The notes beneath the pieces are model-generated. The model ran no database searches and was not told the DNA's origin. It worked only from the letters and a program-made list of their open reading frames with translations. A stretch of DNA of 64,000 nt, from NCBI GenBank assembly GCA_011939005.1, contig GCA_011939005.1_4858.1. One strand, given 5' to 3'. Source of the stretch: a phage. Each line of letters begins with the position of its first letter. Position 1 is the stretch's first letter. A program made the position numbers and the translations under genes. Of this stretch, positions 5,944-57,853 are shown piece by piece.

Positions 5944-5959
5944 TAGGTAATATATATCT
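5944..5959. promoter_or_regulatory. conserved near-palindromic promoter-like motif (variant AGGTAATATATATCT)
   Basis: Member of recurrent AGATAATATCTATCT family, upstream of minus-strand gene start at 5896. Confidence 0.4.
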
Positions 5960-8647: not shown

Positions 8648-8703
8648 TTGTTTCGGTTCCTTTGGTTATAACCCAATTACACGCCCCTAGATAAGGGGCC
8701 CCC

Positions 8704-9261
8704 TTAGGGACGTGCGATTTTTAAAAACACTGCTAACGACGAGATCATATCGGATAACCCGTTCGGACGTGTCAACCAACGTGCCAGCAGTTCGTGGTCT
8801 GCATAAGATAATAGACGCCGGTCAGGCGTGTACGTCTGATGCGCAGTTCCCATACGGCGAACTTGCCCACTACGACCGTAAGCCGCAGCAAGAAGTCGTG
8901 AGCCCAGGGAACCGGTTCGCTCTACTTGCTTAGTAGAGTGGATATCGTTCATGTACGATACCAGAAGAACGGACCACTGTCCTGTTGACACTGTACGGCG
9001 TTTACCGTCAAGTATGAACGATGCAGATTCGTTATAAAACGTATTAAACGTAAAACCGACCTGCGGATATTCGTCATATAATACTTGTTGGACAGAGTCA
9101 GCGCCCATCATGCGGAAATACGGCAGCACGACGGCTGCAGCTTCCAGGGTTTCATGTATCAGTTCGTCGTCATGAACCAGCACGGGGTTTTGGGTCAGTT
9201 TCGCCATGTAGTTTTTAATCAACTTCTCGGCGAGGTTAAAATTCTGGTCATTGTCAAACAT
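8704..9261 (-). CDS. hypothetical protein (185 aa)
   Basis: ORF. Confidence 0.5.
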   Translation of the reverse strand: MFDNDQNFNLAEKLIKNYMAKLTQNPVLVHDDELIHETLEAAAVVLPYFRMMGADSVQQVLYDEYPQVGFTFNTFYNESASFILDGKRRTVSTGQWSVLLVSYMNDIHSTKQVERTGSLGSRLLAAAYGRSGQVRRMGTAHQTYTPDRRLLSYADHELLARWLTRPNGLSDMISSLAVFLKIARP

Positions 9262-9284
9262 GAGACTCTCCTGATAATACGGTC

Positions 9285-10217
9285 TTAGACCAGACCGTAT
9301 TTTTTCTCCAGACGTTCACGTTTGTACTTGAGTTCCATCAAGCGCTTTTCGTGCGCTTCGATGAGTTTCTCAATGTGCACGTCCCCTTCACCGGCAGCCA
9401 GTTGTTTCTTGTACAACAGAATACGCAGCTCAGTCGCTTTCGCGGCTTCCACGCACTCGTCATAACGATCCATTTGCCATTCTGCAATATTCAGACGCAC
9501 GCGGTAGACGATCGACAGCGGGAACGGAACGGAGGACATACCCAGTGGATCAGTGGTGTTCGAACCGAACTGCTGAACCAATTGGCTATATGTCTCTTCG
9601 TCAAACACCGCTTCGGGTATCTCAGCGTAGTCTGCTTTCAGTTTGGTAATGGGGGTTGCCAGGACGCGCACCGCAATACAGAAAGACGTCTTACGAGTTT
9701 GCAGATACTGAAGGTCTTTCGGACCGATTCCCTTCACTGCAATGTTCGAGTCTTGTACAGCGGCAATCTCTTCGGCCGTGATGTAGTTAATCAGGGTGCT
9801 AGCGTAACCGACGAAGAACTCGATCATATCCAGCAACTGCAACACGGTTTGTTTGTTGAACGTTAGAGATGACGTCACCAACGTCTTCCCGATATCGCGG
9901 TCGATACACTGCTCCAGGAAAGGTCGCAGCGCCTGTACGTTCTGCATAGACGCGATGACGTACTCCAGCATACTTGCGTTACGTAACCCTTTAACTTCCA
10001 AACCGGAGCTATGCAGGTACTTAACGATTTCAGTAGAAAGGTCTGCAACAGGCTTCGCTTTAAATGGCTTACCCTGGACACTTCCCACCAGTTCCTGGAG
10101 GTTCTGGAACTGTGGCTCTAATGCAGCAATCGAGTCGCAGTTAGATGACAGTTGGTTTTTTAAGTTCGTGGCTTCGAAGCTCGGCAGCAACATCGCCAAC
10201 ATATTCGGAATCGGCAT
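9285..10217 (-). CDS. hypothetical protein
   Basis: ORF track gives start at 10262; internal ATG at 10217 has AAGGGGA Shine-Dalgarno and removes the overlap with the upstream gene. Confidence 0.45.
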   Translation of the reverse strand: MPIPNMLAMLLPSFEATNLKNQLSSNCDSIAALEPQFQNLQELVGSVQGKPFKAKPVADLSTEIVKYLHSSGLEVKGLRNASMLEYVIASMQNVQALRPFLEQCIDRDIGKTLVTSSLTFNKQTVLQLLDMIEFFVGYASTLINYITAEEIAAVQDSNIAVKGIGPKDLQYLQTRKTSFCIAVRVLATPITKLKADYAEIPEAVFDEETYSQLVQQFGSNTTDPLGMSSVPFPLSIVYRVRLNIAEWQMDRYDECVEAAKATELRILLYKKQLAAGEGDVHIEKLIEAHEKRLMELKYKRERLEKKYGLV

Positions 10218-10227
10218 TCTTTTCCCC

Positions 10228-11346
10228 TTACAGTACCGGATTCGCGCCGACGCGATAGGCATCGATGATTTTGTTTACATCGCCGCTACCGGACTTCGCC
10301 TTGCTAAAGTCTGATTTGTCGAGTTCTTGAGACCCGGTCTGGCCACGCGTATAAATGGTTACACGGTTCCAGGTCTGGTCGACAACCACGTAGTAAACAG
10401 TCAGGGTGTCTTTGAACACACGCTGGCGGATATTGTAATCATCGAAGTCACCGCCCAGCTGAGCAGTCAGATCGTCGATAGTTTCTTGAGAAACCACCAT
10501 AACCGAAGACGCGTTGTTGATGGATGGGCTCAGCGTCAGTAGGCCAGACAGCCAGTTGGCGTTTTTCTTTTCCATCATCTTGCGGTAATAACCGGACTTA
10601 TCACGGAAGCGGTTCTTACGGTATTCTTCGATAAGGTCATTACACAGCGCGATATCTTTCGCGTAGCTGAGAGAACCGACCTTCGCACGCAGCACGCGTT
10701 CCCAGAAGGTTTTAGTCTGATCGCTGAACGCAATCAGTGTTTTCATTTCGTCGGTTGGCAGAGACTTCACATCAAGACGCAGACGCATCGGCAGCTCAAC
10801 TTTATTACCGTCACGTTCGAAGGTAACAGAGAACACTTTACCGTTGGACAGTCCTTCTTGATCATGCAGGAGCTTCAGTGTGTTGTTCGGCAGCACAGAA
10901 CCTGCGGATGATTCAGTCGCTACTTTGTTATCGGATTTCTGGCGACGGGATTCACCGACCGCAAGCCCGATTTTATCGTATGACGGCAGCGCGTGACGGG
11001 AGGACTCGCCGATTGCGAAAGACGCTAAGCGAGAACCCGAACGTGCAGCCGCGTCGAGGGCATTACGACGGGTGCTAACCTGGTCAAGCGTACCAAGGAT
11101 ATCAACCTCAGGAACACCTACCAGAATTGAGATGGCGGTAAGTTGGTTGCCCGCGAGCAGGATTTGGATTTTCTCCAGAATACCTGGCAGGTAATCTAAG
11201 CCCAACAGACTTTGTTCAACCAGCGTGGTGTGCTCGTTGTACAGCACAGAGTTGAATTCTTCCGTCGATTCCGCCCGCTGGCGAAGCAGCATGGGAAACT
11301 TAGAAAGAAAGGAGACGAGCGATGTCTCAAATGTTTTTTCTGCCAT
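10228..11346 (-). CDS. hypothetical protein (372 aa)
   Basis: ORF. Confidence 0.5.
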   Translation of the reverse strand: MAEKTFETSLVSFLSKFPMLLRQRAESTEEFNSVLYNEHTTLVEQSLLGLDYLPGILEKIQILLAGNQLTAISILVGVPEVDILGTLDQVSTRRNALDAAARSGSRLASFAIGESSRHALPSYDKIGLAVGESRRQKSDNKVATESSAGSVLPNNTLKLLHDQEGLSNGKVFSVTFERDGNKVELPMRLRLDVKSLPTDEMKTLIAFSDQTKTFWERVLRAKVGSLSYAKDIALCNDLIEEYRKNRFRDKSGYYRKMMEKKNANWLSGLLTLSPSINNASSVMVVSQETIDDLTAQLGGDFDDYNIRQRVFKDTLTVYYVVVDQTWNRVTIYTRGQTGSQELDKSDFSKAKSGSGDVNKIIDAYRVGANPVL

Positions 11347-11368
11347 TTTTAACTAAACTCCGGAGTTA

Positions 11369-12631
11369 ATGATGAGTAACGAGACCGATAAGAACGATCC
11401 GGGGTATGACCCGAATACCGACTACGACAATTCGTATCAAAACCCGAATAATATCGATGCAGTACCATCGGTCGCCGACTACTTTGACCGTCGACTGTCC
11501 GATGCGAAACCCACCACGGCGTACAACGTTAATGATGAGTTATCGGGTTGGAATGACCGTATCCGTCTTACGTTAGGTTTGGGTCTGGCTGCGCAGCGTG
11601 TGACCAACCCCTACATGGGGTTCAACCATATGATGGCGTCGAACCCGACGCCTGTTAACCGTGAGTACGGTGGCCTAACCTTCATTACCCGCCCTGACTT
11701 CAACTTGTGCTTTGACAACATTGCCAACTCGCGCAAGATGTCGAACATGGCTTCTCAGCCGAAATCGTCACTCGACTATTCCATTCTGGCAGCGTTAGAC
11801 CCAGATTTTGAATTGGGGTTCTCTGATTCACCGATGGAAGATGGGCGAAGAAAGAACCGTTTGGGCACGCCATTCATGAAGGACATTATGTTTGACAATC
11901 TTCAGGCATTCATACCATTGCTGAGTACACAGATGCTGAGCCTCTCGGGGATGCCTGACCAGTCTGTCGATAACTGGATGTCTGAAGAAGGTTTAATGCG
12001 CGAACAGTGGGGTATGGTTGACTCCACACATGAAATCAATAACCAGTACAGTATGTCGATGTCGCTGAACAACCCATACGGCAACCCAATCATGCGAATG
12101 ATGGGCGTGTGGCTGGAGTATATGTCCGGCATTAAGATGGGTAAGTTCAAACCGAAGATGCGTAATTCCATCCAGCGTCGCATTGACTACCAATCGAGGA
12201 TGTACGGGTTTAAATACGACGCGCTCGGAAACATCACTCGTTTCTGGACAGCGTGTGTTTGTTGGCCGATGAACGATAACGCCGGTCAAATGGCGAATGT
12301 CGATAACACCAAGCCTCAATTAAATGACGACACCACAATTAACCTCAACTGGCAATGCATCGGGGCGCGCTTCGATGACCCATTGTACATGGAGATGTTC
12401 AACTTGACGGTGTCTATGTTTAACCCGGATATGATGCCGCAACCAGGGAGCGTTGCAGCGGGCAACTTTATCCCGATTGCTGAAGACCAGCTTGTGCCGA
12501 TTGCACCACAGCTACTACCGCTGTTCAACTACTACGGCTATCCGCACATCGACTCCCTGCGTCGTAAACTGACCTGGTATGTTTATCAGGCAGATTACCA
12601 ATTCATCCTTAAACGAGCGGGCTTACTGTAA
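11369..12631 (+). CDS. hypothetical protein (420 aa)
   Basis: Plus-strand ORF, divergent from 10228..11346; ATGA-coupled to next gene. Confidence 0.55.
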   Translation: MMSNETDKNDPGYDPNTDYDNSYQNPNNIDAVPSVADYFDRRLSDAKPTTAYNVNDELSGWNDRIRLTLGLGLAAQRVTNPYMGFNHMMASNPTPVNREYGGLTFITRPDFNLCFDNIANSRKMSNMASQPKSSLDYSILAALDPDFELGFSDSPMEDGRRKNRLGTPFMKDIMFDNLQAFIPLLSTQMLSLSGMPDQSVDNWMSEEGLMREQWGMVDSTHEINNQYSMSMSLNNPYGNPIMRMMGVWLEYMSGIKMGKFKPKMRNSIQRRIDYQSRMYGFKYDALGNITRFWTACVCWPMNDNAGQMANVDNTKPQLNDDTTINLNWQCIGARFDDPLYMEMFNLTVSMFNPDMMPQPGSVAAGNFIPIAEDQLVPIAPQLLPLFNYYGYPHIDSLRRKLTWYVYQADYQFILKRAGLL

Positions 12632-15635: not shown

Positions 15636-17366
15636 TTCGCCGTCAAGCATGTTTTTGCGATTATTGCCTTTCACCAACGGGTTACGTTTGGCCAGGTTCA
15701 GTATCGTCTGCAATGTAGCGGCAGCACTGCAACAACGACGCACCAACGACAGGTTACGACGCAAGCCGACGAAGAGGTCTTCGTCACCGTCTGGGGAGAA
15801 TAACACCATCGAGAGTTCACGACCGTCGGTACGCAGGCCAGAAGGCTGATTAAGCTCATTCATGATGACTTCGCTAATCAGGTTAACGTATTCAACGTTA
15901 TCCTTGGTTGCTTTCTGGAACTGCTCCAACACTTTAATCGTGTTGTTAACCGCCTTATCCAGTGCACTGTAACGATTCAGGTTAGTCGCAGCGGTGTCGT
16001 TGGTAAAGCCTTGTTTACCTAACGTTACCACTACAGCCAGCAACTCACGTTCGTCACCAACCGATAACGTGCCTGCCTGGCGCATTTGCTCTAAGCACTC
16101 GCGTCCCAAGAACGCAGATGCTTGTGCGTTGACCAATACCTTACCAGGCACGAAGTCCACACCATCGTCATGACCCACTAAACCACGAACTTTGTTTTCT
16201 GGGATAACGACCAAAGGTGCAGTAGCGTATTCGAATCCTTTGCGGGAAACGTCGCTGATGATGAAGTTCATCGTGGTGTTCAGCTGCGCTAACGCCTGAC
16301 CGAAAATAAGCGCGGTGTCGTGTGCTGCTTTGTTAACTTGCTTACCGTTGTGCGTGGTGGTTGAACCTTGCTGATTCTTAAAACCTTCGGCGACGCTTGG
16401 GTCAATCATCGCTTTAAAGGCACTCTGGAGCGAGCCAAAGTAACCGATAAGTTCGCTGGCAACATTCGACATCTGATGGAAGTTCAACAGGTTCGGAATA
16501 CGCACACCGGCTTCGCGAGCAGACTTCGGTAACGCCTGCCAGGCTTTCTTACCCACTTCAATCGGGTAGATACCGTACGTCACGTTGTGTTGTAACAGGG
16601 TGTCTAACAGATCGTGAATAACCTGCTGGCTTGACTGACGTTTCTTAGTGTAGCCTTTGAACAACTCAGTGAACGGCGAACGACCCAGCGCGCTACTCAA
16701 GTCGTTCAGATACTCTTCCGCGTTCATGTTCGTAAACACTTCGTCGGCCATCGCGATAGCCAAGTTCAGGTTTTCCAGGTCACGACCTTTCAGACCCTTA
16801 GAGGCTTCGATGTATGCATCTTTCACTGCGCTGATTTTCAGCTGACCAATGATAGTATTTTCGGTCTGGGAGAAACTCTCTGCTTTTTCGCCGACTTTCT
16901 CAGCGTAACCTTCGCCGTCAAATTCGCCATTACCAGCAAACCCGTTACCGTTGCTGATAATCCAACCGATGATTTTGATAATCGCGGTCATGATCAACAC
17001 AACCAATCCCACTTTACCTGCATTTGCCCAGGATTCGAGCGCAACAATAGTCTCTTTCTGGTGCGTGCGGGTATAGTTCGAGGTCAGGATTTTGCGAACG
17101 GCTTCGGGAATTGTACCTGGGCGAGAAGATTCAACAGCGACAGCGACATCTTTCGACAGACCTGCGCGACGCACTTCGTCAAGAATCGCGTCAATTTGCA
17201 GAATCAGTCGAGAGCCGTAGATTAAGTCAGCTTCGTTGCGTTGCATGTACAGATTGAGCTGGTTGACAGAATCAATACGCTCGGCCATACGTGAACGCAG
17301 GACTTCACCGATCTCCCCCAAACGCCATTTGGGGTGGGTGGCGTTACCTGTCATTTCCATGCTCAT
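15633..17366 (-). CDS. membrane protein (577 aa), function unknown
   Basis: Hydrophobic segment VGLVVLIMTAIIKIIGWII; ATGA overlap with 17363..17806. Confidence 0.5.
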   Translation of the reverse strand: MSMEMTGNATHPKWRLGEIGEVLRSRMAERIDSVNQLNLYMQRNEADLIYGSRLILQIDAILDEVRRAGLSKDVAVAVESSRPGTIPEAVRKILTSNYTRTHQKETIVALESWANAGKVGLVVLIMTAIIKIIGWIISNGNGFAGNGEFDGEGYAEKVGEKAESFSQTENTIIGQLKISAVKDAYIEASKGLKGRDLENLNLAIAMADEVFTNMNAEEYLNDLSSALGRSPFTELFKGYTKKRQSSQQVIHDLLDTLLQHNVTYGIYPIEVGKKAWQALPKSAREAGVRIPNLLNFHQMSNVASELIGYFGSLQSAFKAMIDPSVAEGFKNQQGSTTTHNGKQVNKAAHDTALIFGQALAQLNTTMNFIISDVSRKGFEYATAPLVVIPENKVRGLVGHDDGVDFVPGKVLVNAQASAFLGRECLEQMRQAGTLSVGDERELLAVVVTLGKQGFTNDTAATNLNRYSALDKAVNNTIKVLEQFQKATKDNVEYVNLISEVIMNELNQPSGLRTDGRELSMVLFSPDGDEDLFVGLRRNLSLVRRCCSAAATLQTILNLAKRNPLVKGNNRKNMLDGE

Positions 17367-33268: not shown

Positions 33269-33285
33269 AAGATAATATCTATCTG
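33269..33285. promoter_or_regulatory. conserved promoter-like motif AAGATAATATCTATCTG
   Basis: In 66-nt gap between divergent genes 31002..33239(-) and 33306..33629(+). Confidence 0.5.
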
Positions 33286-46039: not shown

Positions 46040-47893
46040 TTACAGTTTGAAGTTGCTCAGAGTCACGCCCAGACCGAAATCGGAACCGCTTGCAGACAGG
46101 CCGTTGCCAGACAGCGTGAAGTCTTCCCCACCGTTGTTGAAGAACAGAGAGGTCGCCATCGTGTTGTAGGCATTTACACCAGTCATAGACCAGGTGCAGT
46201 TGTTACGGACGAAGTCCAGCAGGCATTTACCGAAGATCGGGTTGATAGCCATATCCAGAGATTCACCGGTAGCTTGCGGTGCTTTGGATGCGAACAGAGA
46301 AGCGGCCAGTTTCAGCATGTAGATACGCTGTTGACGCTCGTTCAGTTCACGGTGGCTGTAGGACTGTGCGTTCAGGTAGCTATAGACGTCGTTCGCGTTA
46401 TCACCCAGTTTGGTAACAACGGAAATCAGGTCCATATCCTGGAAGCTACGTTTCTGTGCAGTACCGGTGTAAACACCGGAAACAGTCGGTACGGCTGCTT
46501 TCACGATGTGGCTGCAATGGATGGTACCATTGAAGGCATCGCCCAGCTGTGCTTTCAGTGCAGAAGCAAATACTGCAGTGAAGCTGGTCGCTGCAACAAC
46601 TTCGCCGTTCTGATCACGCGGGGACATGGAATTCAGAATAGCGAGCAGCTGTTTCAGAGAGTTGTCGTAACCGACCGCAATTTCAGACAGCAAAGTAGAC
46701 AGACCACCCAGGCCGTTACCGGCACGATGGCTAACTACCAGTGCTGCTTCACGCGGTGCGAACATATCCAGGCAACCTTCGATAGCTTCACGGCTACCGT
46801 CGATTTTGGATACATCAGGACGAGCGTCAGCACCCCAGGACAGGTATTCTGCCACACGGGAGAACTTGCGATCTTGTTTGTTCAGACGTTTCACAAACAG
46901 GTCACGCCAGCCACCGATTGCCGCGATTTCTGCAAATGCAGCCAGCAGCAGCAGTTGACGTTCATACGGTGCCATTGCACCTTCAGTTTGAGAATCGATC
47001 AGACTTACTACGATTTCAGCCTGCAGCTGTTTCAGGTCGTAGACGCCGTTAACGACAGGCTTCTGACCGGTGAAACGCATATTGACGAAACCGGTACCGG
47101 ATACACGCGGATACACCTGTACCTGATTGGTGTCCAGCAGAGTCGGAGTGGCGTCGGTTACGTTGCTTGGGCTGTGCTCAACGGTGATTGCGAAATCAGC
47201 ACGCTGTGCGTGGCCGTTAGCATCAACAACCGCACCATCTTCCAGCGGCATTACTGCGGCCTGATAACGGTCATGCTTACGCAGGTTCAGCGTACCCAGG
47301 TAGCCTGCGATACGACCGAAGATGCCCATCATCATCTGACCCATCAGAGTACGTGCCCACTCAGCATCCAGAACTTTACCCAGGTCTGGTACGGAGTTGA
47401 TGATCATGAAGTTCGCATTGGTCAGACCATGCGCTTCCATGATGTTTTTCTGTACTACTGCCAGCACGTCTTTGTTGAACAGTTCAGTGATGGTGTAGTA
47501 GTCTTCCTGGCCGTTGTTGGTAGTTTCTTTCAGACGCAGAGACTGACCGCGTTCAAAGAAGATGATACCGTACAGCCAGTGGCCCTGCCATTGGCCTGCG
47601 ACGTACGCCGCGGAACCCATTTCGTTACCCACGCCGACGATGGTGCCCCAGCGGAATGCGTTGAGGTATTCGTTGCTTTTCTTCAGCTCATCCAGGAGGT
47701 TGGTGAAGTGCATTGCATAGGTGCTGATGTTGCGGATGCCAAATGCGTTATCGAATTGGCTGACAGTAGAAGTACCCGGCACAGCAGTTTGCACTTTTAC
47801 AGTCTCGTTGCCCAGACCGCCCAGTGGTGCGGTGTCTTGAGTCTGAGTGTTGTTCTGCTGAGCGTTGTTGTTAGAGTCAACGATTTTTACCAT
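46040..47893 (-). CDS. abundant 617-aa protein: candidate phage-nucleus shell (chimallin-like) or major structural protein
   Basis: AAGGAA Shine-Dalgarno, promoter-like motif 45 nt upstream, strong terminator downstream, sits beside the beta-prime-like gene; assignment is by context only. Confidence 0.4.
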   Translation of the reverse strand: MVKIVDSNNNAQQNNTQTQDTAPLGGLGNETVKVQTAVPGTSTVSQFDNAFGIRNISTYAMHFTNLLDELKKSNEYLNAFRWGTIVGVGNEMGSAAYVAGQWQGHWLYGIIFFERGQSLRLKETTNNGQEDYYTITELFNKDVLAVVQKNIMEAHGLTNANFMIINSVPDLGKVLDAEWARTLMGQMMMGIFGRIAGYLGTLNLRKHDRYQAAVMPLEDGAVVDANGHAQRADFAITVEHSPSNVTDATPTLLDTNQVQVYPRVSGTGFVNMRFTGQKPVVNGVYDLKQLQAEIVVSLIDSQTEGAMAPYERQLLLLAAFAEIAAIGGWRDLFVKRLNKQDRKFSRVAEYLSWGADARPDVSKIDGSREAIEGCLDMFAPREAALVVSHRAGNGLGGLSTLLSEIAVGYDNSLKQLLAILNSMSPRDQNGEVVAATSFTAVFASALKAQLGDAFNGTIHCSHIVKAAVPTVSGVYTGTAQKRSFQDMDLISVVTKLGDNANDVYSYLNAQSYSHRELNERQQRIYMLKLAASLFASKAPQATGESLDMAINPIFGKCLLDFVRNNCTWSMTGVNAYNTMATSLFFNNGGEDFTLSGNGLSASGSDFGLGVTLSNFKL

Positions 47894-47936: not shown

Positions 47937-47955
47937 CAGAGATAATATCTGCCTG
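47937..47955. promoter_or_regulatory. conserved promoter-like motif CAGAGATAATATCTGCCTG
   Basis: 44-62 nt upstream of minus-strand start at 47893. Confidence 0.5.
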
Positions 47956-48078: not shown

Positions 48079-49167
48079 GTGGAATCTAAGGAGTCTGCCA
48101 TGTTCAGCCAAGCCGAGTTAAACCAAGTGGCCATAAAGGGTCACAGCACGGACCCCTCCGCTATAACATTAGCGGCTCACGTAAAAAACAACAGCCAGCG
48201 TATACGCAACTACTTCGAACAGCTTAATCGCAGTGCTGGTAATGGCCATTTGTTGCAACAGGTGTTGTCTGCCATCGGCTATGCCGGTGAACCAGAGTAC
48301 GAAGACATCGAATGGGCTTGCCGTCGCAAGCTTGTTCAGATCGGTAACGCCTTACGCTTGACATCTGTTGGTGAGTACGGTCAAATCTTTAATAGCAAGT
48401 TTATCCAGGGCCAAGATGAGGTAATCTCTCTCGTAGCCCGCCCAGTAAATCCAGACCTTTCGTTCCGCGACTACACCCCCGCCCGTTACCTCTACCATGA
48501 GTATACCAACCTCAATTGGAAGTTCGGTGACGGACGGCCCCGAGGTGTTACGGTGATCGAAATCAACCTGGTTGCTTTGCTTTGGCAATATGTCAAAGGC
48601 CAGCAGCACTACAGTCGCGGTACCGAACCTATTGCCACACCTGTGTATCTCCAACGACATGTGATCTCTCGCATGTTGCCGAGCTACATGGATATCGCCT
48701 TTGTAAATATACATCGCGCGATAGCCTTCGGGAAAGAGATTGAACCGGATGAAACATTACGTGTCATTCCTGTTCCGCCGCTTCAAGCTTTAGCTGTGAA
48801 GCACGCAAAAGGCATCCGTAGTAAACTACTGGCTGCCAACCCGTTACCGGGACAAGTCTTAAACAACATCCCGTTGTTCTTCCAACACCCTGATGAAGAA
48901 GGCCACACAGCACTGGAACTGATTGTCTTTCGAGAACCAGGTCAAACACTGCAGAACACCTGGCACCAGAACATGGTGAACTGGTACTGGGCACTGTTTT
49001 GTCTTCAATACAACCAGGGGAATATGGAGAAACACAAACGTACGATGTTGGTTGATTTGGCGCGTTATGTGGACTCTAAAGTCCTCACACGTTTGACCAA
49101 ATCCTTCTATAACTTTATCCAACGCGATTTGATTATCCCGTTGACGACAGAGCTAGAAGAAAAATAA
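48079..49167 (+). CDS. hypothetical protein (362 aa)
   Basis: Plus-strand ORF with AAGGAG Shine-Dalgarno, terminator downstream. Confidence 0.55.
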   Translation: MESKESAMFSQAELNQVAIKGHSTDPSAITLAAHVKNNSQRIRNYFEQLNRSAGNGHLLQQVLSAIGYAGEPEYEDIEWACRRKLVQIGNALRLTSVGEYGQIFNSKFIQGQDEVISLVARPVNPDLSFRDYTPARYLYHEYTNLNWKFGDGRPRGVTVIEINLVALLWQYVKGQQHYSRGTEPIATPVYLQRHVISRMLPSYMDIAFVNIHRAIAFGKEIEPDETLRVIPVPPLQALAVKHAKGIRSKLLAANPLPGQVLNNIPLFFQHPDEEGHTALELIVFREPGQTLQNTWHQNMVNWYWALFCLQYNQGNMEKHKRTMLVDLARYVDSKVLTRLTKSFYNFIQRDLIIPLTTELEEK

Positions 49168-50487: not shown

Positions 50488-52767
50488 TTACTCCTCCGCT
50501 TCTTCCCCATCTTCTTCCTCTCCATCACGTTCAGATTTCTTAACGTACTCACCGCTACCTAATTCTTCCTTGACGGAATCTACAGACTCACCGTAGTAAT
50601 CCGAAAGCAGACGAGTTCTGTTCTTGTCCATCATGAACACACCCAGACATTCCAAGATGTGATAGTAAGGTTCTACTGTGGAGAATGCGCTTCGACGTGT
50701 GTCTGCAGCATCAATCAGCTCCGGCGGAATACCGAAGTTTTCCACCAGGAACTCTGGCAGTATCAGAGTGCGATAGGTACGATAGTTGTTTTCTTCGAAC
50801 CACCGTGTTGCAGTGGTCTTAATCATCGGGTCTTTAATGTTTTCCAGCCACTCTTTAACGGCTGTTTTGTTCTCCAGGTTTACCGGAAGTTTCACGGCGT
50901 CATAAGGCGGTTCGTCCAGGTAGCCGTACTTCGGTCCAAAGATAGCGTTGTACATGCGGTGGTAGTGGTAGCTCTTTTCATCATCTTCAGAGTACGCACT
51001 ACGGTCTTTGACGTTGGTTGTTTTCAGGTAGCCTGCTTTACCAGCGCGAATAGAATCCACCACAACGTGCTCAATTGCAGCAACCTTTTCCAGCAGAGGC
51101 AGAATCTTAATCTTATCGCCGCGCGCTACAATCTCACAGAGTTCTTTAATCGTGCGTTTGAACTCTTTCATGACCACCGGAGGAATGTTCGACGTACGTA
51201 AAGACACGCCCTTAACTTCTAACTCAGGGTCAGACTTCAACTGCCCTTCCTGGCCAGTGATGATGGAGAAATAGTGTTTTGCTTTCGTGGTTAACGCAAA
51301 GGAGTCGAACTTAAATTCGTTCTTCATTGCGTACAAGAACAGACGCTCTTTCGCCACACCGATGTTCGCCGACATACTCGCCATCAGATGACGTAAGTGT
51401 TGGGTTGCGATATAAATCATCGCATCCGATACGCGCGTAGCTTCACGACCGTAATGTTGACCGGTATACCACTGTGCCCACCACTGTGCAGTCATCATCG
51501 TGGAGTCGGTATCAGATACCACACCAACACGACGAACTACGTCGGGCATCCTGGCAATGTTGATTGGCAGGTTTTTGGTGGTCAGGATGTTACGAATCAA
51601 ACATGCGTACTTACCGATGGTTTTCTGCAGATATACAGCTGAGCGAATCAGCTCTTTGTATTTTTCCTGCTTATCCCACGGTTCCGCTTTGTTCGTGTTT
51701 TCGTCTTTAAGTTTAACGTCAGAGAACGACTTACCTAACGGCACGATATCAGTACGGAACTGCGAGATAATAATCTGCATATCGCCGTCGATGGAGCGCT
51801 CGGCGGCGTCCCAATCTGTGATCTCGTCTTCCATCTCCTCAGCAATCAGCGCACCGATAAACCCACGCATGAATTCATCGTTGTATTTTGCCAAGTGATA
51901 GAAATCGCCCATGTAGACAAACGCAGCACGCACTAATGGGCTACAGTTACCTACGTAGTGGCGGATAAACTCCAGTCCTTCATCATTGCGGAAATAGAAG
52001 TCTGCAGAGTACGTAACCACTTCCATAACCTCGTCCACAGTTGGGTAGTGGAGGTTATAGAGTTCCATACACTTCTTGAACTCCGCAAAGTTAGTCAGTG
52101 TACCAATAGACAGTAAGTGATCGATAACACGGGACGGTGTATCGTAGTGACGATTACCACCCAGTAGACGTTCGTTGCCAGCGTTACCGAACGATGTAGC
52201 CGTACGGCAGGTTGACGTCAATACAGAGTGCGAAGACTGGTTAAAGATTACCGTGTACGGTGATGAGAAAGCACCAGACATCCCGTTGTTCAGCGTTTTA
52301 ACAGCATTCTGTTCGTTCTTTTTGTTAATACGTAAAACTTCGTTGCCTGCAGCACCGGCTGCATACATCTCTTTCTTAACAACCGCACGCTTACGCACGT
52401 TCTCTGCGGTAAATTCAGCAAGCTTAGAGCGCTTGACGTGTTCCGGCAAATAGAAAGTCAACGACGGTGCAGAAATGATCTGCTTATCAATCACTGTACG
52501 GAACAGTTTATCTACCGTGGTGTATTTTTCTTCGCGATCGCCGGTCTTTTGATTGCGCACCCACATCTTACACACGGGGAATTCGTGTACTAACTCACCA
52601 CCAGGTTGGAACATTTCTTCGACCTGCTGTCGACAGAACTCCAAAGAATATTTCCCGTTGGTGACGGTATGAATGTAGAGCGCCAGTTGTTCGTAGTACG
52701 CATCGATAACGTCAATGTCGCGATGATACTCGTCTTGACTAAGACGAAATGGTGAATTGTAGTCCAC
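50488..52767 (-). CDS. polymerase-like protein (possible family-B-type nucleotidyltransferase), acidic C-terminus
   Basis: VGVVSDTDSTMM resembles pol motif C (YGDTDS); KTLNNGMSG loosely resembles motif B; C-terminus GEEEDGEEAEE. Confidence 0.35.
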   Translation of the reverse strand: MDYNSPFRLSQDEYHRDIDVIDAYYEQLALYIHTVTNGKYSLEFCRQQVEEMFQPGGELVHEFPVCKMWVRNQKTGDREEKYTTVDKLFRTVIDKQIISAPSLTFYLPEHVKRSKLAEFTAENVRKRAVVKKEMYAAGAAGNEVLRINKKNEQNAVKTLNNGMSGAFSSPYTVIFNQSSHSVLTSTCRTATSFGNAGNERLLGGNRHYDTPSRVIDHLLSIGTLTNFAEFKKCMELYNLHYPTVDEVMEVVTYSADFYFRNDEGLEFIRHYVGNCSPLVRAAFVYMGDFYHLAKYNDEFMRGFIGALIAEEMEDEITDWDAAERSIDGDMQIIISQFRTDIVPLGKSFSDVKLKDENTNKAEPWDKQEKYKELIRSAVYLQKTIGKYACLIRNILTTKNLPINIARMPDVVRRVGVVSDTDSTMMTAQWWAQWYTGQHYGREATRVSDAMIYIATQHLRHLMASMSANIGVAKERLFLYAMKNEFKFDSFALTTKAKHYFSIITGQEGQLKSDPELEVKGVSLRTSNIPPVVMKEFKRTIKELCEIVARGDKIKILPLLEKVAAIEHVVVDSIRAGKAGYLKTTNVKDRSAYSEDDEKSYHYHRMYNAIFGPKYGYLDEPPYDAVKLPVNLENKTAVKEWLENIKDPMIKTTATRWFEENNYRTYRTLILPEFLVENFGIPPELIDAADTRRSAFSTVEPYYHILECLGVFMMDKNRTRLLSDYYGESVDSVKEELGSGEYVKKSERDGEEEDGEEAEE

Positions 52768-52814: not shown

Positions 52815-52853
52815 TGAAAAAAGAAAAAAAATAACCCACTCCGAAGAGTGGGC
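52815..52853 (-). terminator. intrinsic terminator, UUCG loop on minus strand
   Basis: A-rich run then CCCACTC-cgaa-GAGTGGG on plus strand. Confidence 0.65.
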
Positions 52854-52858
52854 TTACT

Positions 52859-53269
52859 TTAACCGGCAATACTCTCAACGATTTCAAAATCGACGTCATT
52901 GAAACCATTGGCAGCCAGGGCACGTTTAAGGTCGTCAATCTCCTGTTTGTTATCCAGGGTGACGGTGAAGCGCACCTTCGTGTTTTCGATAATCTGAACA
53001 TCACGAATCCAGGCATCGGCAGCGACTTTTGGTTTGCCGTCAACACCTTTGAAAATCAGATACGTGTATTTGTTCACGTTATCTTCTGGCTGAGAAACAA
53101 TGGAAGAGTAGATATTCTTCTGCTCCGCCATCACATCCATATAACTTTTGGCCATTTCATAGCCAACGCCGGTTGCCAGAATAATTACACGCGTCTCTTG
53201 CCCTTTCAAAGGGGTGTCGTAAACAATGTTAACTTTTTGCCCAGCGACCAGTGTGCGTAAATCGAACAT
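52859..53269 (-). CDS. hypothetical protein (136 aa)
   Basis: ORF, first of a small-gene cassette. Confidence 0.5.
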   Translation of the reverse strand: MFDLRTLVAGQKVNIVYDTPLKGQETRVIILATGVGYEMAKSYMDVMAEQKNIYSSIVSQPEDNVNKYTYLIFKGVDGKPKVAADAWIRDVQIIENTKVRFTVTLDNKQEIDDLKRALAANGFNDVDFEIVESIAG

Positions 53270-53868
53270 TATTCCTCCTCAGGAACATCAATAAGCAGCC
53301 TCATATCCAAAGCATTGGTCACTGGTGTTTTCGGGAAGTCCACCTTGAGAACCAACGTACGGATAGCGCCATTATGCGCCTCTAAGAACATCTTCACCGG
53401 CTCAACATAATGCGCCATAACTGCCTCCGTTACGGCGGTCGCCATTAGATCCAGCGTGTAGTGCTTGAGCGTAGCCCAGTGTGAACTGTCTTGCTCTTTG
53501 TACACCAACGCTAAATCTAACAATGGTGTCAGCCCGTTAAAATGTGACTCAGTGCTGGCTTCCATTGCAACATTAAACTTCCACCGACGGTACTCGTCAG
53601 TCAGTAACGTAAAGAAGTCGTGCAAGAACGTAAGGTCGGTGCGAGGCAACATGCAACGAAACTCGTACGTATAGCTAGTCAGCGTTTCACGTATAAGTTC
53701 GTGCATCTCGTCCTGGTCCAATTCTTTTACGGGTATCTCCACGGTGATACGCGGTAGGCGGACTACGGTGTCAACCACCAAATCCAAAAACCGCATACCG
53801 TCCGGAAGATACCCCACGACCCCCAAGTCCACATTAATCAAGTGGTTGGCGATCACCTTGTAGATCAT
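53269..53868 (-). CDS. hypothetical protein (199 aa)
   Basis: ORF. Confidence 0.5.
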   Translation of the reverse strand: MIYKVIANHLINVDLGVVGYLPDGMRFLDLVVDTVVRLPRITVEIPVKELDQDEMHELIRETLTSYTYEFRCMLPRTDLTFLHDFFTLLTDEYRRWKFNVAMEASTESHFNGLTPLLDLALVYKEQDSSHWATLKHYTLDLMATAVTEAVMAHYVEPVKMFLEAHNGAIRTLVLKVDFPKTPVTNALDMRLLIDVPEEE

Positions 53869-53877
53869 TCGTACTCC

Positions 53878-54309
53878 TTAACATTCAACACAGATGAGTG
53901 CGTTGCCAATTTCATTCATAAGGAGTGAAACCTTTGTCTTTTTTGCTCCGTCTTCTGGAGTCAAGCCAGCCATGCCCCACACACGTTCTATCACGGAAAG
54001 GATTTCATAGAACCGAACATCATCCTTAATCCCACTGCTCATGCTGTAGCAGTTTAGAGGCAGCACCTTTTCAGTACCCCACATCCCGCGCAACTGTTCC
54101 AGTATCAACGCAGGGTCTGGGGGAATAAAAGTAAGAAAGTTCTTACCCTTACCTAGCCCATTAACAATAGAACGAACCGTTAATTCGGCGTAACTGGCCA
54201 GAAACAAATAAGCGACAGCGGGCTCGATCTCGCTAGTATCAGCAATCTCGGCCCGTGCCAACAACGACTCATATTTGAAGACTTCGCCTATGGTCATGTA
54301 CAGTTTCAT
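53878..54309 (-). CDS. hypothetical protein (143 aa)
   Basis: ORF. Confidence 0.5.
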   Translation of the reverse strand: MKLYMTIGEVFKYESLLARAEIADTSEIEPAVAYLFLASYAELTVRSIVNGLGKGKNFLTFIPPDPALILEQLRGMWGTEKVLPLNCYSMSSGIKDDVRFYEILSVIERVWGMAGLTPEDGAKKTKVSLLMNEIGNALICVEC

Positions 54310-54794
54310 TCGCAGATTAACACCACATCGTTAAAACTATCACCTACATACGTTTGATATCGACCCGGATACAGCGACTCTATCAATCCAGCGAAACCAG
54401 TTAAGTTTGTTAACTCTTCGACCAACAAACTTACCGCAGCGCCGAAGGCAGCTTGATGTTGTTCGGGCGAACCTTGTGCTGCCAGAAACGTCGTATCGAC
54501 AGACGTTTCTTTAGCGAACTGGTCAACGGACAGACCATCGGTCACCAACTCCCAATTGCCCAGAGGTTCAAGCGTGTCTTCCTGTAACAAATCAACCATT
54601 GTCGATGGGTCACGAGTTTTCACACCGATGATATACGCAAACGCAAAACGTTGATAAAAATCACGTATCTGCGTTTCATCAATCTCCAGGTTACTGGCTT
54701 CCAATACACGCAATGCTGCTTCGCGAACGTGCTCGTAAAACCGAGTCGCGCTATATTGGTTCGCAATATCCGCCACATCAAACAGAACGCTCAT
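54306..54794 (-). CDS. hypothetical protein (162 aa)
   Basis: ORF, ATGA-coupled. Confidence 0.5.
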   Translation of the reverse strand: MSVLFDVADIANQYSATRFYEHVREAALRVLEASNLEIDETQIRDFYQRFAFAYIIGVKTRDPSTMVDLLQEDTLEPLGNWELVTDGLSVDQFAKETSVDTTFLAAQGSPEQHQAAFGAAVSLLVEELTNLTGFAGLIESLYPGRYQTYVGDSFNDVVLICE

Positions 54795-55300
54795 ACACGG
54801 CCTCCGAGATTACCGATAAGCAAATCGATAACAGGCAGAAGCTGTGGGGTAATGCGCTCGTACGCTTCCTGGCTGGCAAACTGTGGGAATTTATCACCGC
54901 CATTATAGTCCAGTAAGAATTCGACATCCGCCGGATTGCGCGTTGTGTATTGTGCCCCTACCCAGCGACCGTAGTGAGTGAACCAATACGGAGACTGTGA
55001 CACAGCAGTCATATACGCACGACCGATGTTTTGAATTGCGGTGCCGTAAGTGATTACTTGCTCATTTTCCAACACAACGCCGTGCGCATTCAGTGTACGA
55101 GAAACAAACCCAAAGGTATTGTTCATCATAAACTTTAACTCACTACCAATGGTTCCACGTTCCACGAAGCTCATGGCGGTATTGATTATCGAGTTCAAAT
55201 CGTCATTCACTTCGCGGAGCACATCGTTTGGCGAAAACTCCGTTAACGGCCCAGCCAATAACTGATAGCCGGGGATATAAAAATGAGATCGCTCAATCAT
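54791..55300 (-). CDS. hypothetical protein (169 aa)
   Basis: ORF, ATGA-coupled. Confidence 0.5.
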   Translation of the reverse strand: MIERSHFYIPGYQLLAGPLTEFSPNDVLREVNDDLNSIINTAMSFVERGTIGSELKFMMNNTFGFVSRTLNAHGVVLENEQVITYGTAIQNIGRAYMTAVSQSPYWFTHYGRWVGAQYTTRNPADVEFLLDYNGGDKFPQFASQEAYERITPQLLPVIDLLIGNLGGRV

Positions 55301-55700
55301 TGTAAGTAACCCCTGTAGTTAACATTTTCCAGACACCATCTCCTACATGCCAAAGGAGGAAGTCGGATTGTGGTAAATAAGTCATGTCCTCGTCGATTGC
55401 TTGCCAGATGCAATCGGTGTCCCGTATCAACAACTCAAATCGACAAAGAGCCCAGTATTTTGCCGACGTGGTTGGTGTAATGATTGGGTTATCGTGAACA
55501 TACTCCATAAAGAACTGGCGTATCATGCTATCGATAACGCCATATTTTTTCCGCAGAACGTGCAACCGAACAATTTGCTCGATATAGTCGTCAAGCTCTA
55601 TCGCAGCATCCTGGTAATCGATGCCGAGATTCTCTTTGACGAGTGCGGTGAGTCGGCAAGTCAAACGCACGAACTCAGTATAAACCGTCATCATAGACAT
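55293..55700 (-). CDS. hypothetical protein (135 aa)
   Basis: ORF. Confidence 0.5.
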   Translation of the reverse strand: MSMMTVYTEFVRLTCRLTALVKENLGIDYQDAAIELDDYIEQIVRLHVLRKKYGVIDSMIRQFFMEYVHDNPIITPTTSAKYWALCRFELLIRDTDCIWQAIDEDMTYLPQSDFLLWHVGDGVWKMLTTGVTYND

Positions 55701-56142
55701 CTGTTACCTTACGTGGAATGAAACGGAGAATTCTGTCTGCTTGATTATAATGATACCGATACCCTTTTGGAGGAATGCCCATTTCCTCACAGATAGCACG
55801 ATGAACGTGTGACGCGATGGTGTGGATTTCCCGCGAATGACTTCTGGGACGATAGCACCTAACAATCAGTGAGACTGTTTCTACGTCCCACGTACCGTGT
55901 TCTGTAAATGTCGGAATCATGTATTCGAGCATACAGAGAATGATATGCTTCAACCCCGTATTAACATCATACATGCTGAACATGATGTCGCTGGGGTCAT
56001 TCAATATCCTGACGTATGCCGTCGAGGCGATGTGATCGATCAGTACCAGACGGACGATATCGTTTGTTTGGGAAGCATTGGCGGTAGTGGATGAATCTGA
56101 TGTCTTCTCCAATTTGCAACTCCAGAGATTGCACCTGCCCAC
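55675..56142 (-). CDS. hypothetical protein (155 aa)
   Basis: ORF; N-terminal 146 nt overlap the upstream ORF, so start is uncertain. Confidence 0.4.
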   Translation of the reverse strand: MGRCNLWSCKLEKTSDSSTTANASQTNDIVRLVLIDHIASTAYVRILNDPSDIMFSMYDVNTGLKHIILCMLEYMIPTFTEHGTWDVETVSLIVRCYRPRSHSREIHTIASHVHRAICEEMGIPPKGYRYHYNQADRILRFIPRKVTDVYDDGLY

Positions 56143-56560
56143 GATGGGTTATGTGTGGTTCCAGTTTAATCGTCGCATAACGATTAAACGGCTGGTTGGT
56201 GGCCTTCACAGCATTCTCCACAAGTGCATGGATACTGTCCAGGAAACTGTTGTAACAGTCTTCGAATGCCAATCCGATAAGATATTCGGTAGAACGTAAA
56301 ATCGCTACGGTCTCTTTCGTCTTATTAACCGGGGCACCCAAACCGCCACTGGAAACATATGTACGTTCCACAGGAACTGTTTTCGGTGGGAGTATGATCT
56401 GGTCAGCCACCAACATCATCGTAAGATTAAAAGCGTCAGTATAAGGTTCCAGCAAAGGTTCCATACGTGCATTAGGCATTTCCGGAACGGAGTAAAAGAT
56501 ATCTTCGAGCGCAGTGTGTAACAGTTGTACAGTTAACATCTCGCGTTCTTTTTGGCTCAT
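55997..56560 (-). CDS. hypothetical protein
   Basis: ORF track start 56758 overlaps 56557..56877 by 200 nt; ATG at 56560 overlaps that gene's stop in an ATGA arrangement. Confidence 0.4.
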   Translation of the reverse strand: MSQKEREMLTVQLLHTALEDIFYSVPEMPNARMEPLLEPYTDAFNLTMMLVADQIILPPKTVPVERTYVSSGGLGAPVNKTKETVAILRSTEYLIGLAFEDCYNSFLDSIHALVENAVKATNQPFNRYATIKLEPHITHRGQVQSLELQIGEDIRFIHYRQCFPNKRYRPSGTDRSHRLDGIRQDIE

Positions 56561-56877
56561 CCGCAGAGCGGTAGCGTACTGGGAAGCATCGACAGGCCCC
56601 CAGAAGCTAGAATGAACCGCAGCTGGTTCGAGGTATATTCTGACCACGTTTGCACAACTCCATTTTTGTAATGAAAGGGATAGCGATGGTTTCGGCCCAA
56701 CGCCGAAATAACAAACCACGCTTCCGTGCCAAAATAACTTTCGGCAATGCGTGTCCACTCACGTGGAAACTCATGCGTGCCGGGATAAATAACTTCTTGT
56801 ATCGCGCACAGTAACATGTCCGCAGGCACAATCAGCTCATTTGTCCCTGGAGAGAAATTAAAGAACATGCGCGTCAT
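56557..56877 (-). CDS. hypothetical protein (106 aa)
   Basis: ORF; promoter-like motif 26-45 nt upstream. Confidence 0.45.
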   Translation of the reverse strand: MTRMFFNFSPGTNELIVPADMLLCAIQEVIYPGTHEFPREWTRIAESYFGTEAWFVISALGRNHRYPFHYKNGVVQTWSEYTSNQLRFILASGGLSMLPSTLPLCG

Positions 56878-56902
56878 CGAGAAATGCTCCTTAAGGATAA
56901 TT

Positions 56903-56922
56903 CACGAAGATAATATCTATGC
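56903..56922. promoter_or_regulatory. conserved promoter-like motif CACGAAGATAATATCTATGC
   Basis: Between divergent genes 56557..56877(-) and 57011..57853(+). Confidence 0.5.
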
Positions 56923-57010
56923 AAAATTTCTTCGAGTATGGTGCGCACATAAAGGTCGTAAAACGTATTTTAATGTCAGGTAATGCTATCCCATTACCCG
57001 ATGGTATGAG

Positions 57011-57853
57011 TTGTCCTACGAGCTTCATAGGAGCCTTAGAATGAATGTTATCGACTACTGCCTGCGTAAAATCAGACAGCATATCCCTGCCCCGATTCTA
57101 CAGGCGGCTTTTGTTCCAGAAAACCTCAAGTTACTGGGAATTGCAAGCTCTGTAGATAACGAAATTCAACAACGCGTTATTCGTGAAATTCTGGTCCCTG
57201 AAATCTCCAGAATGGGGCAGTATCAAGAAGTAGATTTGCAAGGTGTTCCTTGGGATAACGACACGCAAGATTATTTCAGTCGCGTGTATTATCTCGACGA
57301 CATCAAAACAGGTGGTCGCCCAATTCTGGACGCCCATATCTCTGTAACACCTGTTGCCGGACAGGCGTACACCATGCCACCCGCGGGTTCGTATCTGGAC
57401 GGTGCAACCTCTGGCGTACTGGCGTCCACTCAACAAGTGGTTGATAGTCAATCCGCGATGCCGCGTATCGCCTCACCAGAAGTTGAAGTGCTCGGTCCGA
57501 ATACCATTCGTATCAAAGACCCAGGCATGTTCGTTTACTCTACCAAACTCGTGGTGAAGTACGAACTGTCCCAGGAGATGAACGAAATCAAACCAGCATT
57601 CTATCCGGTTGTAGGTGAGCTGGCAGTCATGGCTGTTAAGCAATATATCTACAACACCATGATCTTCGACATGGATTCCGGTAAACTGGAAAATGGTATG
57701 GAGTTCGGTGCCTTCAGAAACGTTATTGAAGGTTACTCGGACGCCGGTCAAATGTTCGAAGACACCTTGCCGAAAATGCAACGTTGCCTGGTCCACAACG
57801 ACAACATCGGAAACCGTTGGAACTACATGAACGGTGGTCGCTTCAAGTCGTAA
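57011..57853 (+). CDS. hypothetical protein (280 aa)
   Basis: Plus-strand ORF with GGAG Shine-Dalgarno, terminator downstream. Confidence 0.55.
   Translation: MSYELHRSLRMNVIDYCLRKIRQHIPAPILQAAFVPENLKLLGIASSVDNEIQQRVIREILVPEISRMGQYQEVDLQGVPWDNDTQDYFSRVYYLDDIKTGGRPILDAHISVTPVAGQAYTMPPAGSYLDGATSGVLASTQQVVDSQSAMPRIASPEVEVLGPNTIRIKDPGMFVYSTKLVVKYELSQEMNEIKPAFYPVVGELAVMAVKQYIYNTMIFDMDSGKLENGMEFGAFRNVIEGYSDAGQMFEDTLPKMQRCLVHNDNIGNRWNYMNGGRFKS

Follow-up and report, generated by a model that had tools for sequence, protein, structure and literature searches.

A nine-gene string ahead of the DNA polymerase gene of an SPN3US-like jumbo phage is a candidate early operon for accessory factors of the phage nucleus and replication

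Gene content and layout of the cassette

A stretch of phage DNA of 64,000 nucleotides (GenBank assembly GCA_011939005.1, contig GCA_011939005.1_4858.1; hereafter the window) carries nine small genes in a row on the minus strand, from 56877 down to 52859, directly upstream of a DNA polymerase gene. The window derives from an SPN3US-like Salmonella jumbo phage (Seoulvirus, Chimalliviridae, nucleus-forming), since a region of 4.3 kb is 97-98.7% identical to such phages. The cassette corresponds to gp9-gp17 of SPN3US in the original numbering (SPN3US coordinates 7435-11453), where all nine genes are annotated as hypothetical and the polymerase gene likewise follows directly downstream. A preliminary description made from the letters alone had recognized nine consecutive small genes here, and this was borne out by the annotation of the same nine genes in SPN3US and more than 30 related genomes. 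The features are collected in Table 1.

The gene sizes are 102-199 amino acids (aa), and the range of 106-253 aa in the preliminary description has to be revised. Its 253-aa open reading frame (ORF) is a maximal GTG-started extension that overlaps gp9 by 200 nt; gp10 starts at the ATG at 56560, in an ATGA shared with the gp9 stop. Similarly, a 155-aa ORF is a maximal GTG-started extension of gp11, which starts at the ATG at 55983 and encodes 102 aa. Overlapping stop and start codons, also reported there, occur at six junctions out of eight, where 1 to about 26 nt are shared, namely ATGA at gp9/gp10, gp13/gp14 and gp14/gp15, TAATG at gp16/gp17, 8 nt at gp12/gp13 and 17-26 nt at gp11/gp12, but the remaining two are short gaps of 13 nt (gp10/gp11) and 9 nt (gp15/gp16). 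The same pattern is seen in relatives, and such tight packing probably couples the translation of the nine genes. The terminator expected at the end of the cassette does lie at 52854-52833 and is a strong one, with a stem of 9 bp including five GC pairs followed by a T run. It separates the polymerase gene gp18 from the operon, and nothing else is located between gp17 and gp18. The motif scan detected no early motif within the cassette. Isoelectric points (pI) are 6.25 for gp9, 7.05 for gp11 and under 6 for the other seven proteins, and none of the nine is basic.

Table 1. Features of the nine-gene cassette and its immediate context (positions in the window)
Feature	Position	Strand	Remarks
Early-promoter-like motif ATAGATATTATC-N5-G	56903..56920	-	core ATATTAT-N6-G
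gp9, 106 aa	56557..56877	-	first in operon; AAGGAG ribosome-binding site; PHROG 9874, no function given
gp10, 187 aa	55997..56560	-	ATGA overlap with gp9; 18 invariant residues
gp11, 102 aa	55675..55983	-	PHROG 8134; start ATG at 55983 or 55974
gp12, 135 aa	55293..55700	-	overlaps gp11; fastest evolving of the cassette
gp13, 169 aa	54791..55300	-	alpha/beta; best conserved among the eight orphans; 21 invariant residues
gp14, 162 aa	54306..54794	-	ATGA overlap; GGAGG ribosome-binding site; pI 4.2; central insert variable
gp15, 143 aa	53878..54309	-	ATGA overlap
gp16, 199 aa	53269..53868	-	alpha+beta; AAGGAG ribosome-binding site; conserved EYRRWKF motif
gp17, 136 aa	52859..53269	-	SH3DP; TAATG overlap with gp16
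Intrinsic terminator	52833..52854	-	4 nt past the gp17 stop
gp8, 270 aa, DUF7484 (context)	57041..57853	+	divergent; Pfam PF24302, E 1.4e-96
gp18, divergent family-B DNA polymerase (context)	50488..52767	-	Pfam PF20286 divDNApol, E 2.9e-284

The ratio of nonsynonymous to synonymous divergence (dN/dS) was 0-0.39 for all nine genes in comparison with SPN3US, SPAsTU and Erwinia phage Stratton, and every cassette family is conserved down to 21-35% identity. These values indicate that the nine ORFs are genuine coding genes, and they are under purifying selection. The preliminary description added that phage cassettes of this kind often hold host-takeover or anti-defence genes; in such a case, small acidic proteins made early would inhibit host or defence proteins before the phage nucleus is complete. 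Some features agree with this idea. The proteins are small and acidic and, gp17 apart, orphans in Pfam, NCBIfam and PHROGs, they evolve fast (21-57% identity versus 69-92% for the polymerase), and the dN/dS is highest in gp9-gp12 (0.2-0.39; gp9, 0.20-0.30; gp12, 0.27-0.39). Yet even these highest values are well under 1.

Two observations concern the sequence records of this region. The synonymous divergence (dS) from SPN3US is mosaic, being 0.01-0.06 for gp9-gp12 and gp15 and 0.13-0.28 for gp8, gp13, gp14, gp16, gp17 and gp18. This mosaic over 52859-57853 suggests recent recombination among Seoulvirus genomes inside the cassette. Several records of SPFM phages (LR535901-LR535917) matched the region only in many short pieces with the cassette proteins cut or scrambled, which looks like a fault of assembly or sequencing quality rather than biology.

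A conserved early-promoter-like motif upstream of gp9

The block ATAGATATTATC is nearly invariant in the alignment of the gp8-gp9 intergenic region from 11 phages, among which the identity of the cassette proteins drops to 21-35%, and it lies about 30 nt before the ribosome-binding site of gp9. The predicted start is the G at 56903, 26 nt ahead of the gp9 ATG, so that ATATTAT-N6-G spans 56916-56903. The window contains four exact copies of the 12-mer motif, compared with an expectation of 0.2. Each lies at the head of a gene on the minus strand, and a G is located six bases after ATATTAT(C) in every copy. In 44 related loci, 47 copies were found on the cassette strand versus 6 on the opposite one, and about 39 of the 47 sit just upstream of the gp9 homolog, where the motif is conserved in about 39 of the 44 loci. 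The other exact copies in the window are at 33282, 37025 and 38441, and variants on the same strand are found at 47949 and 48042, upstream of a chimallin-like gene (46040-47893), and at 5954. Copies of (ATAG)ATATTAT(C)-N6-G could serve to map the early regulon of the phage.

Early promoters of the virion RNA polymerase of phage AR9 were mapped experimentally and have the consensus AAATATATATTAT-N6-G(+1) (PMC5312081). According to the same authors, early promoters of phiKZ and phiR1-37 also have a conserved start site 6 nt past the consensus element, and extended AT-rich elements are common to all phiKZ-related phages (PMC5312081). The cassette motif agrees with the AR9 promoters in its ATATTAT core, in a spacer of 6 nt and in having a G where transcription is predicted to start. 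It is also strongly strand-specific and located at operon heads, among them that of the chimallin gene in the window, but its upstream part is ATAG instead of an extended AT run. Because the motif has the architecture of an AR9-type early promoter, we predict that the operon is transcribed early by the injected virion RNA polymerase. Thus, the promoter-like motif that the preliminary description placed at this boundary stands as a phage-specific element at 56920-56903. A sigma-70 promoter was rejected, as its sites were no commoner than in shuffled sequence (12 in the scan versus 15.2 expected).

On the strand of gp8, all of the 11 phages share the conserved block TGCTATGAA, which contains TATG; in the window, TATG lies at about 57005-57008 on the plus strand, some 33 nt ahead of the gp8 start at 57041. 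TATG is the motif reported for late promoters of phiKZ, which are used by the non-virion polymerase (PMC5312081). The divergent DUF7484 gene gp8 may belong to another temporal class than the cassette.

The type of promoter bears on whether the cassette products belong to the virion or to head assembly, for example as scaffold, chaperone or ejection proteins. Virion proteins take up about 46% of the SPN3US genome, and the gene on the other side of the polymerase (48079-49167, plus strand) is the positional equivalent of an annotated virion/head protein in relatives. However, the promoter type predicts early expression, and none of phiKZ gp42-gp49 (PHIKZ042-049) is flagged as structural in the phiKZ record, where their neighbours are. 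In addition, neither of the two SPN3US virion-proteome papers searched names any of the products looked for (gp8, gp9, gp10, gp16 and gp17 in both, gp13 in one and gp14 in the other), which is weak evidence against virion proteins. We consider a virion role very improbable.

Distribution of the cassette and the slot between DUF7484 and the polymerase

The concatenated tblastn search found the full cassette, with a length of about 4.05 kb, in five genera (Seoulvirus, Erskinevirus, Machinavirus, Wellingtonvirus and Derbicusvirus), Cronobacter phage CR5 being among the carriers, and reached other clades only via gp17. In the annotated regions of relatives, the gene order is identical and the lengths are nearly so. 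Iterated hidden Markov models (HMMs), run on a set including 160 additional polymerase loci, leveled off at 40-51 loci with fixed distances to the SH3DP gene (gp9, 42; gp11, 44; gp12, 40; gp14, 42; gp15, 40) and never recruited other clades. Among 5.8 billion proteins, gp16 and gp13 gave 15 and 37 matches, respectively, and gp13 had 19 representatives among 1.84 billion proteins. The farthest relatives of gp13 are encoded on metagenomic contigs, one of them marine, that share this arrangement: DUF7484 in the opposite orientation, some ten small genes and then SH3DP, followed by the polymerase on contigs long enough, and two contigs add an opposite-strand gene for about 350 aa and chimallin. 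The HMMs placed gp9, gp10, gp11, gp13, gp16 and gp17 at the expected positions in these contigs and did not detect positional equivalents of gp12, gp14 and gp15. For gp9 and gp11-gp16, no relatives were detectable outside the SPN3US clade by HMM, phmmer or hhalign.

This constancy weighs against a takeover or anti-defence island. Presence/absence variation is lacking, and gene order and gene lengths are constant for all nine in 40-51 loci over several genera and metagenomes. Accessory counter-defence islands normally vary in content. Moreover, the hosts of the cassette-bearing phages differ (Salmonella, Erwinia, Cronobacter and marine bacteria).

The last gene of the cassette was identified clearly. 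gp17 matches Pfam PF20287 (SH3DP) with E 3.2e-35 and 120.9 bits versus the cut-off of 25, over profile positions 2-122 of 122, and 154 loci have an SH3DP gene on the upstream side of the polymerase. When all nine proteins were scanned against Pfam, PHROGs and NCBIfam, this was the only assignment obtained, the matched PHROG families being unannotated and other matches sub-threshold. Hence, the earlier statement that the genes have no recognizable motifs does not apply to gp17, though it holds for the other eight, which match nothing in Pfam or NCBIfam. gp17 is the ortholog of phiKZ gp49, which is core gene cg1 and marked unique to chimallin-encoding phages (Prichard et al., Table S3, PMC10299810). 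In the same table, the phiKZ polymerase gp50 is cg2 and the DUF7484 gene gp42 is cg68, so that both flanks of the cassette, cg68/DUF7484 (gp8) and cg1/SH3DP (gp17), belong to the core genome of Chimalliviridae. Antisense knock-down of phiKZ 042, 049 and 050 strongly impairs plaques, and gp49 was called a polymerase interactor (PMC12571901). A small SH3 gene upstream of this type of polymerase was also pointed out by Iyer et al. (PMC7824862), who suggested a possible subunit. By analogy, gp17 is presumed to be an accessory partner of the divergent family-B DNA polymerase gp18. The location between two core genes and the presence of a polymerase partner in the operon are further points against a host-directed island.

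The adjacency of SH3DP and the polymerase is not absolute, since two to four extra small genes are inserted between them in some lineages, namely the Derbicusvirus loci L010, L011 and L012 (about 7600-9150) and one metagenomic lineage (L025, 9956-11256). Upstream of the DUF7484 gene, gp5 (58862-59812, minus strand, 316 aa) occupies the place where phiKZ has the tubulin PhuZ and is similar to PhuZ in length; it gave no Pfam match at E < 0.01.

The neighbourhood of the polymerase raises another possibility, that the orphans are unrecognized subunits of the replisome that act as processivity factor, primase, single-strand-binding protein or helicase loader, all of which are apparently missing from group-1 jumbo phages. 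Indeed, no recognizable sliding clamp or primase is present in these phages (Iyer et al., PMC7824862), gp9-gp16 share the operon with SH3DP and adjoin the polymerase, albeit with the terminator in between, and gp12 has a sub-threshold match to PriL (E 0.079). On the other hand, the proteins are mostly of pI below 6 and none is basic, and no significant match to a DNA-binding, clamp, OB (oligonucleotide-binding) or primase fold or family was obtained. Further, a universal part of the replisome would be expected to track the polymerase and helicase, but the families stop at the edge of the clade where the polymerase is still alignable. We therefore regard this as quite unlikely.

We compared the slot in ten distant clades (phiKZ-like, Pawinskivirus, Phabio, Agricanvirus, Moabitevirus, Iapetusvirus, RP31, Vibrio, Aeromonas and EL-like). 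All of them have a same-strand string of small genes ending in SH3DP ahead of the polymerase, and most have an opposite-strand gene of DUF7484 size (about 270 aa) upstream, sometimes with PhuZ in between. In phiKZ, the string consists of a 142-aa ORF and gp43, gp44, gp45, gp46, gp47, gp48 and gp49. The 142-aa ORF (L023, NC_004629 about 15900-16330; L013, 4302-4730) is missing from the phiKZ reference annotation; it is annotated in relatives and conserved in 12-13 loci. Over about 150 chimallivirus loci, at least 88 sequence clusters, each in at least four loci, were counted in the slot from DUF7484 to SH3DP (0.1-6.5 kb upstream of SH3DP); most of them are lineage-specific and positionally fixed. 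Such diversity is unusually high for a position between core genes.

Two members of this slot have been characterized in phiKZ. Imp2 (orf47), which itself enters the phage nucleus, is needed for import of the RecA-like Nlp1, Imp4 (orf48) is needed for that of the host TopA, and both were reported as conserved only in Pseudomonas phages (10.1101/2024.03.27.586873). Disruptive transposon insertions are not tolerated in either gene (PMC12676376). Imp2, Imp4 and the cassette genes have the same position in the string between DUF7484 and SH3DP/polymerase, which is positional equivalence only. The iterated HMM of Imp2 recruited 12 loci, none in the SPN3US supergroup, with hhalign at most 1.5%, and that of Imp4 recruited 13 loci (phiKZ-like, EL-like and RP31), again none in the SPN3US supergroup, with hhalign at most 3.8%. 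The Imp4 family found by phmmer in an EL-like phage and Ralstonia phage RP31 (L013, 7945-8328; L022, 8062-8442; L016, 4460-4855) is wider than the published range, which was limited to phiKZ-like phages of Pseudomonas. Literature searches with the locus tags PHIKZ043-047 turned up nothing relevant, and the accessible part of the core-genome supplementary spreadsheet has no entry for these SPN3US genes.

One of the inner genes may be connected with phiKZ by sequence. The phiKZ gp43 family grew by iteration to 78 loci, which covers most of the non-SPN3US lineages, and it takes the second position in the string as gp10 does. The gp43 and gp10 families share two proteins (L059, 5957-6655; L112, 3063-3734). 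Both are encoded by the second gene of the cassette in an intermediate lineage, whose polymerase and gp18 have 48% identity. In a leave-out test, this lineage was removed from both profiles. The gp10 HMM still matched the L059 and L112 proteins with E 4e-7 and 2e-5 (hhalign 96%), and the gp43 HMM matched them with E 3e-6 and 8e-4 (hhalign 88%), both on the same C-terminal segment with N.W...L..GEDxRH. We take these profiles as a sign of probable remote homology between gp10 and the phiKZ gp43 family via a shared C-terminal domain. A search of IMG/VR for further relatives of the bridging lineage returned only that lineage. If the homology is true, the module would be anchored by homologs at both ends family-wide and would be ancestral, with gp10/gp43 present in about 123 of the roughly 149 loci whose sequence reaches far enough upstream.

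The other orphans showed no such link. The eight orphan-family HMMs found nothing in the polymerase-upstream loci of the ten distant clades, and all-versus-all phmmer and hhalign comparisons with thin and rich profiles (480 comparisons in the final round) gave nothing but gp10-gp43. As a control, hhalign also failed between gp12, gp14 and gp15 and their clear positional equivalents in intermediate metagenomic lineages, and because it fails even between positional orthologs, the profile negatives do not exclude homology.

Structure prediction and fold search, which the preliminary description had proposed, were carried out for gp13 and gp16. The AlphaFold2 (AF2) model of gp16 had a predicted local distance difference test score (pLDDT) of 84 and a predicted template-modelling score (pTM) of 0.81, and consists of a strand, two helices, a strand, four helices (two of them long) and two strands. 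In BFVD it matched its own orthologs only, with template-modelling (TM) scores of 0.81-0.90 at 20-36% identity, and this agreement supports the model. The model of gp13 (pLDDT 88, pTM 0.85) matched its own family and one unnamed viral protein of 145 aa (A0A1S6L237; E 1.5e-3, TM 0.58/0.67); lower matches, including several small chimallivirus proteins, were non-significant. No known fold was matched: neither model resembled a clamp, OB fold, primase, nuclease or known anti-defence protein, and the fold searches of both gave no significant match to any phiKZ-type protein. Searches of PDB sequences with profiles of gp13 and gp16 returned only noise. The label DUF4719, carried by one gp13 homolog in nr, had no support in the Pfam scan. 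Likeness to anti-defence or host-targeting proteins was absent for all nine proteins in Pfam, PHROGs and NCBIfam, where no dedicated anti-defence library was included, for gp13 and gp16 in PDB sequences and BFVD, and for gp16 in PDB folds.

Possible function and comparison with known systems

Taken together, we lean, with modest confidence, towards the cassette being the SPN3US-clade version of a chimallivirus early operon that supplies accessory genes for the phage nucleus and replication, not a takeover or anti-defence island. All nucleus-forming jumbo phages would keep an early operon in one slot, flanked by the DUF7484 core gene on one side and by the divergent family-B DNA polymerase on the other, and the virion RNA polymerase would transcribe it early. 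gp17 would work with the DNA polymerase, and the remaining proteins, taken to be soluble and non-virion, may be protein-binding accessory factors of the phage nucleus and replication factory, for example cargo-specific import adaptors or assembly factors. This role is proposed because the proteins are mostly acidic and collinear throughout the clade and because Imp2 and Imp4 occupy the equivalent slot in phiKZ. The fast evolution of the orphans may then reflect co-evolution with phage partners.

Several points weigh against such an assignment. No sequence, profile or fold link connects gp9 and gp11-gp16 with Imp2, Imp4 or other slot proteins, and these seven are assigned by their position. The link between gp10 and gp43 is a transitive one, limited to about 60 residues; direct hhalign gave 0.6% without the bridging sequences and 31% at best (E 5e-4, top of the 480 comparisons) with them in the gp10 profile. 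Since the slot holds so many sequence clusters, replacement of the inner genes instead of their divergence is a live alternative. The excerpt of the table of amber mutations lists none in gp9-gp17. Finally, host-directed effectors would agree just as well with an early promoter and with proteins that are small and acidic.

The motif upstream of gp9 is of the early type, as expected also for takeover or anti-defence genes, but the fixed gene content in 40-51 loci, the core-gene flanks and SH3DP within the operon do not support such an island, and the characterized members of the phiKZ slot serve import into the phage nucleus, not the host. We regard a takeover or anti-defence cassette as unlikely, though individual members may have an anti-host role.

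Within the preferred reading of an early operon for nucleus and replication, a more specific version is that the eight orphans are diverged counterparts of phiKZ gp43-gp48 and act as lineage-specific, fast-evolving early adaptors that license replication and recombination proteins, as well as host proteins, for nuclear entry. This is a tentative possibility, and on balance we would rather doubt it. If it is true, the slot would be the main site where the specificity of nuclear import diversifies, and gp10/gp43 would be a core gene, hidden but nearly universal. The slot is of interest for the selection of proteins that enter the phage nucleus and for the completion of the replisome in these phages. 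Imp2 and Imp4 sit in a slot which each chimallivirus occupies with a collinear set of its own, made up of small acidic proteins under an early-type promoter and anchored by SH3DP at one end and probably by gp10/gp43 at the other. SPN3US gp9-gp16 make a concrete list of candidates in a genetically tractable Salmonella system. Even if unrelated to import, they are a defined set of genes conserved throughout the clade beside the polymerase.

Accessory early clusters of large lytic phages, for example variable and non-essential regions of phiKZ that have been described as candidate anti-defence loci, resemble the cassette in having small, packed genes of unknown function that are probably early, but the phiKZ regions vary between relatives and tolerate insertions (PMC12676376), whereas the cassette is invariant in content and order and located in the core region. 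No feature sets gp17 apart from the SH3DP family. The phiKZ string gp43-gp49 differs in that no similarity of sequence or profile could be detected between its gp44-gp48 and gp9 or gp11-gp16 here, and the import function was shown for the phiKZ proteins only. Nevertheless, the phiKZ-type slot proteins are also mostly acidic, with a few near-neutral or basic ones. Moreover, both strings follow a divergent DUF7484 gene (gp42 in phiKZ, gp8 here) and precede the divergent family-B polymerase on the same strand, and both consist of seven or eight genes plus SH3DP as the last one, with about 1229 aa encoded before SH3DP in phiKZ and 1203 aa here.

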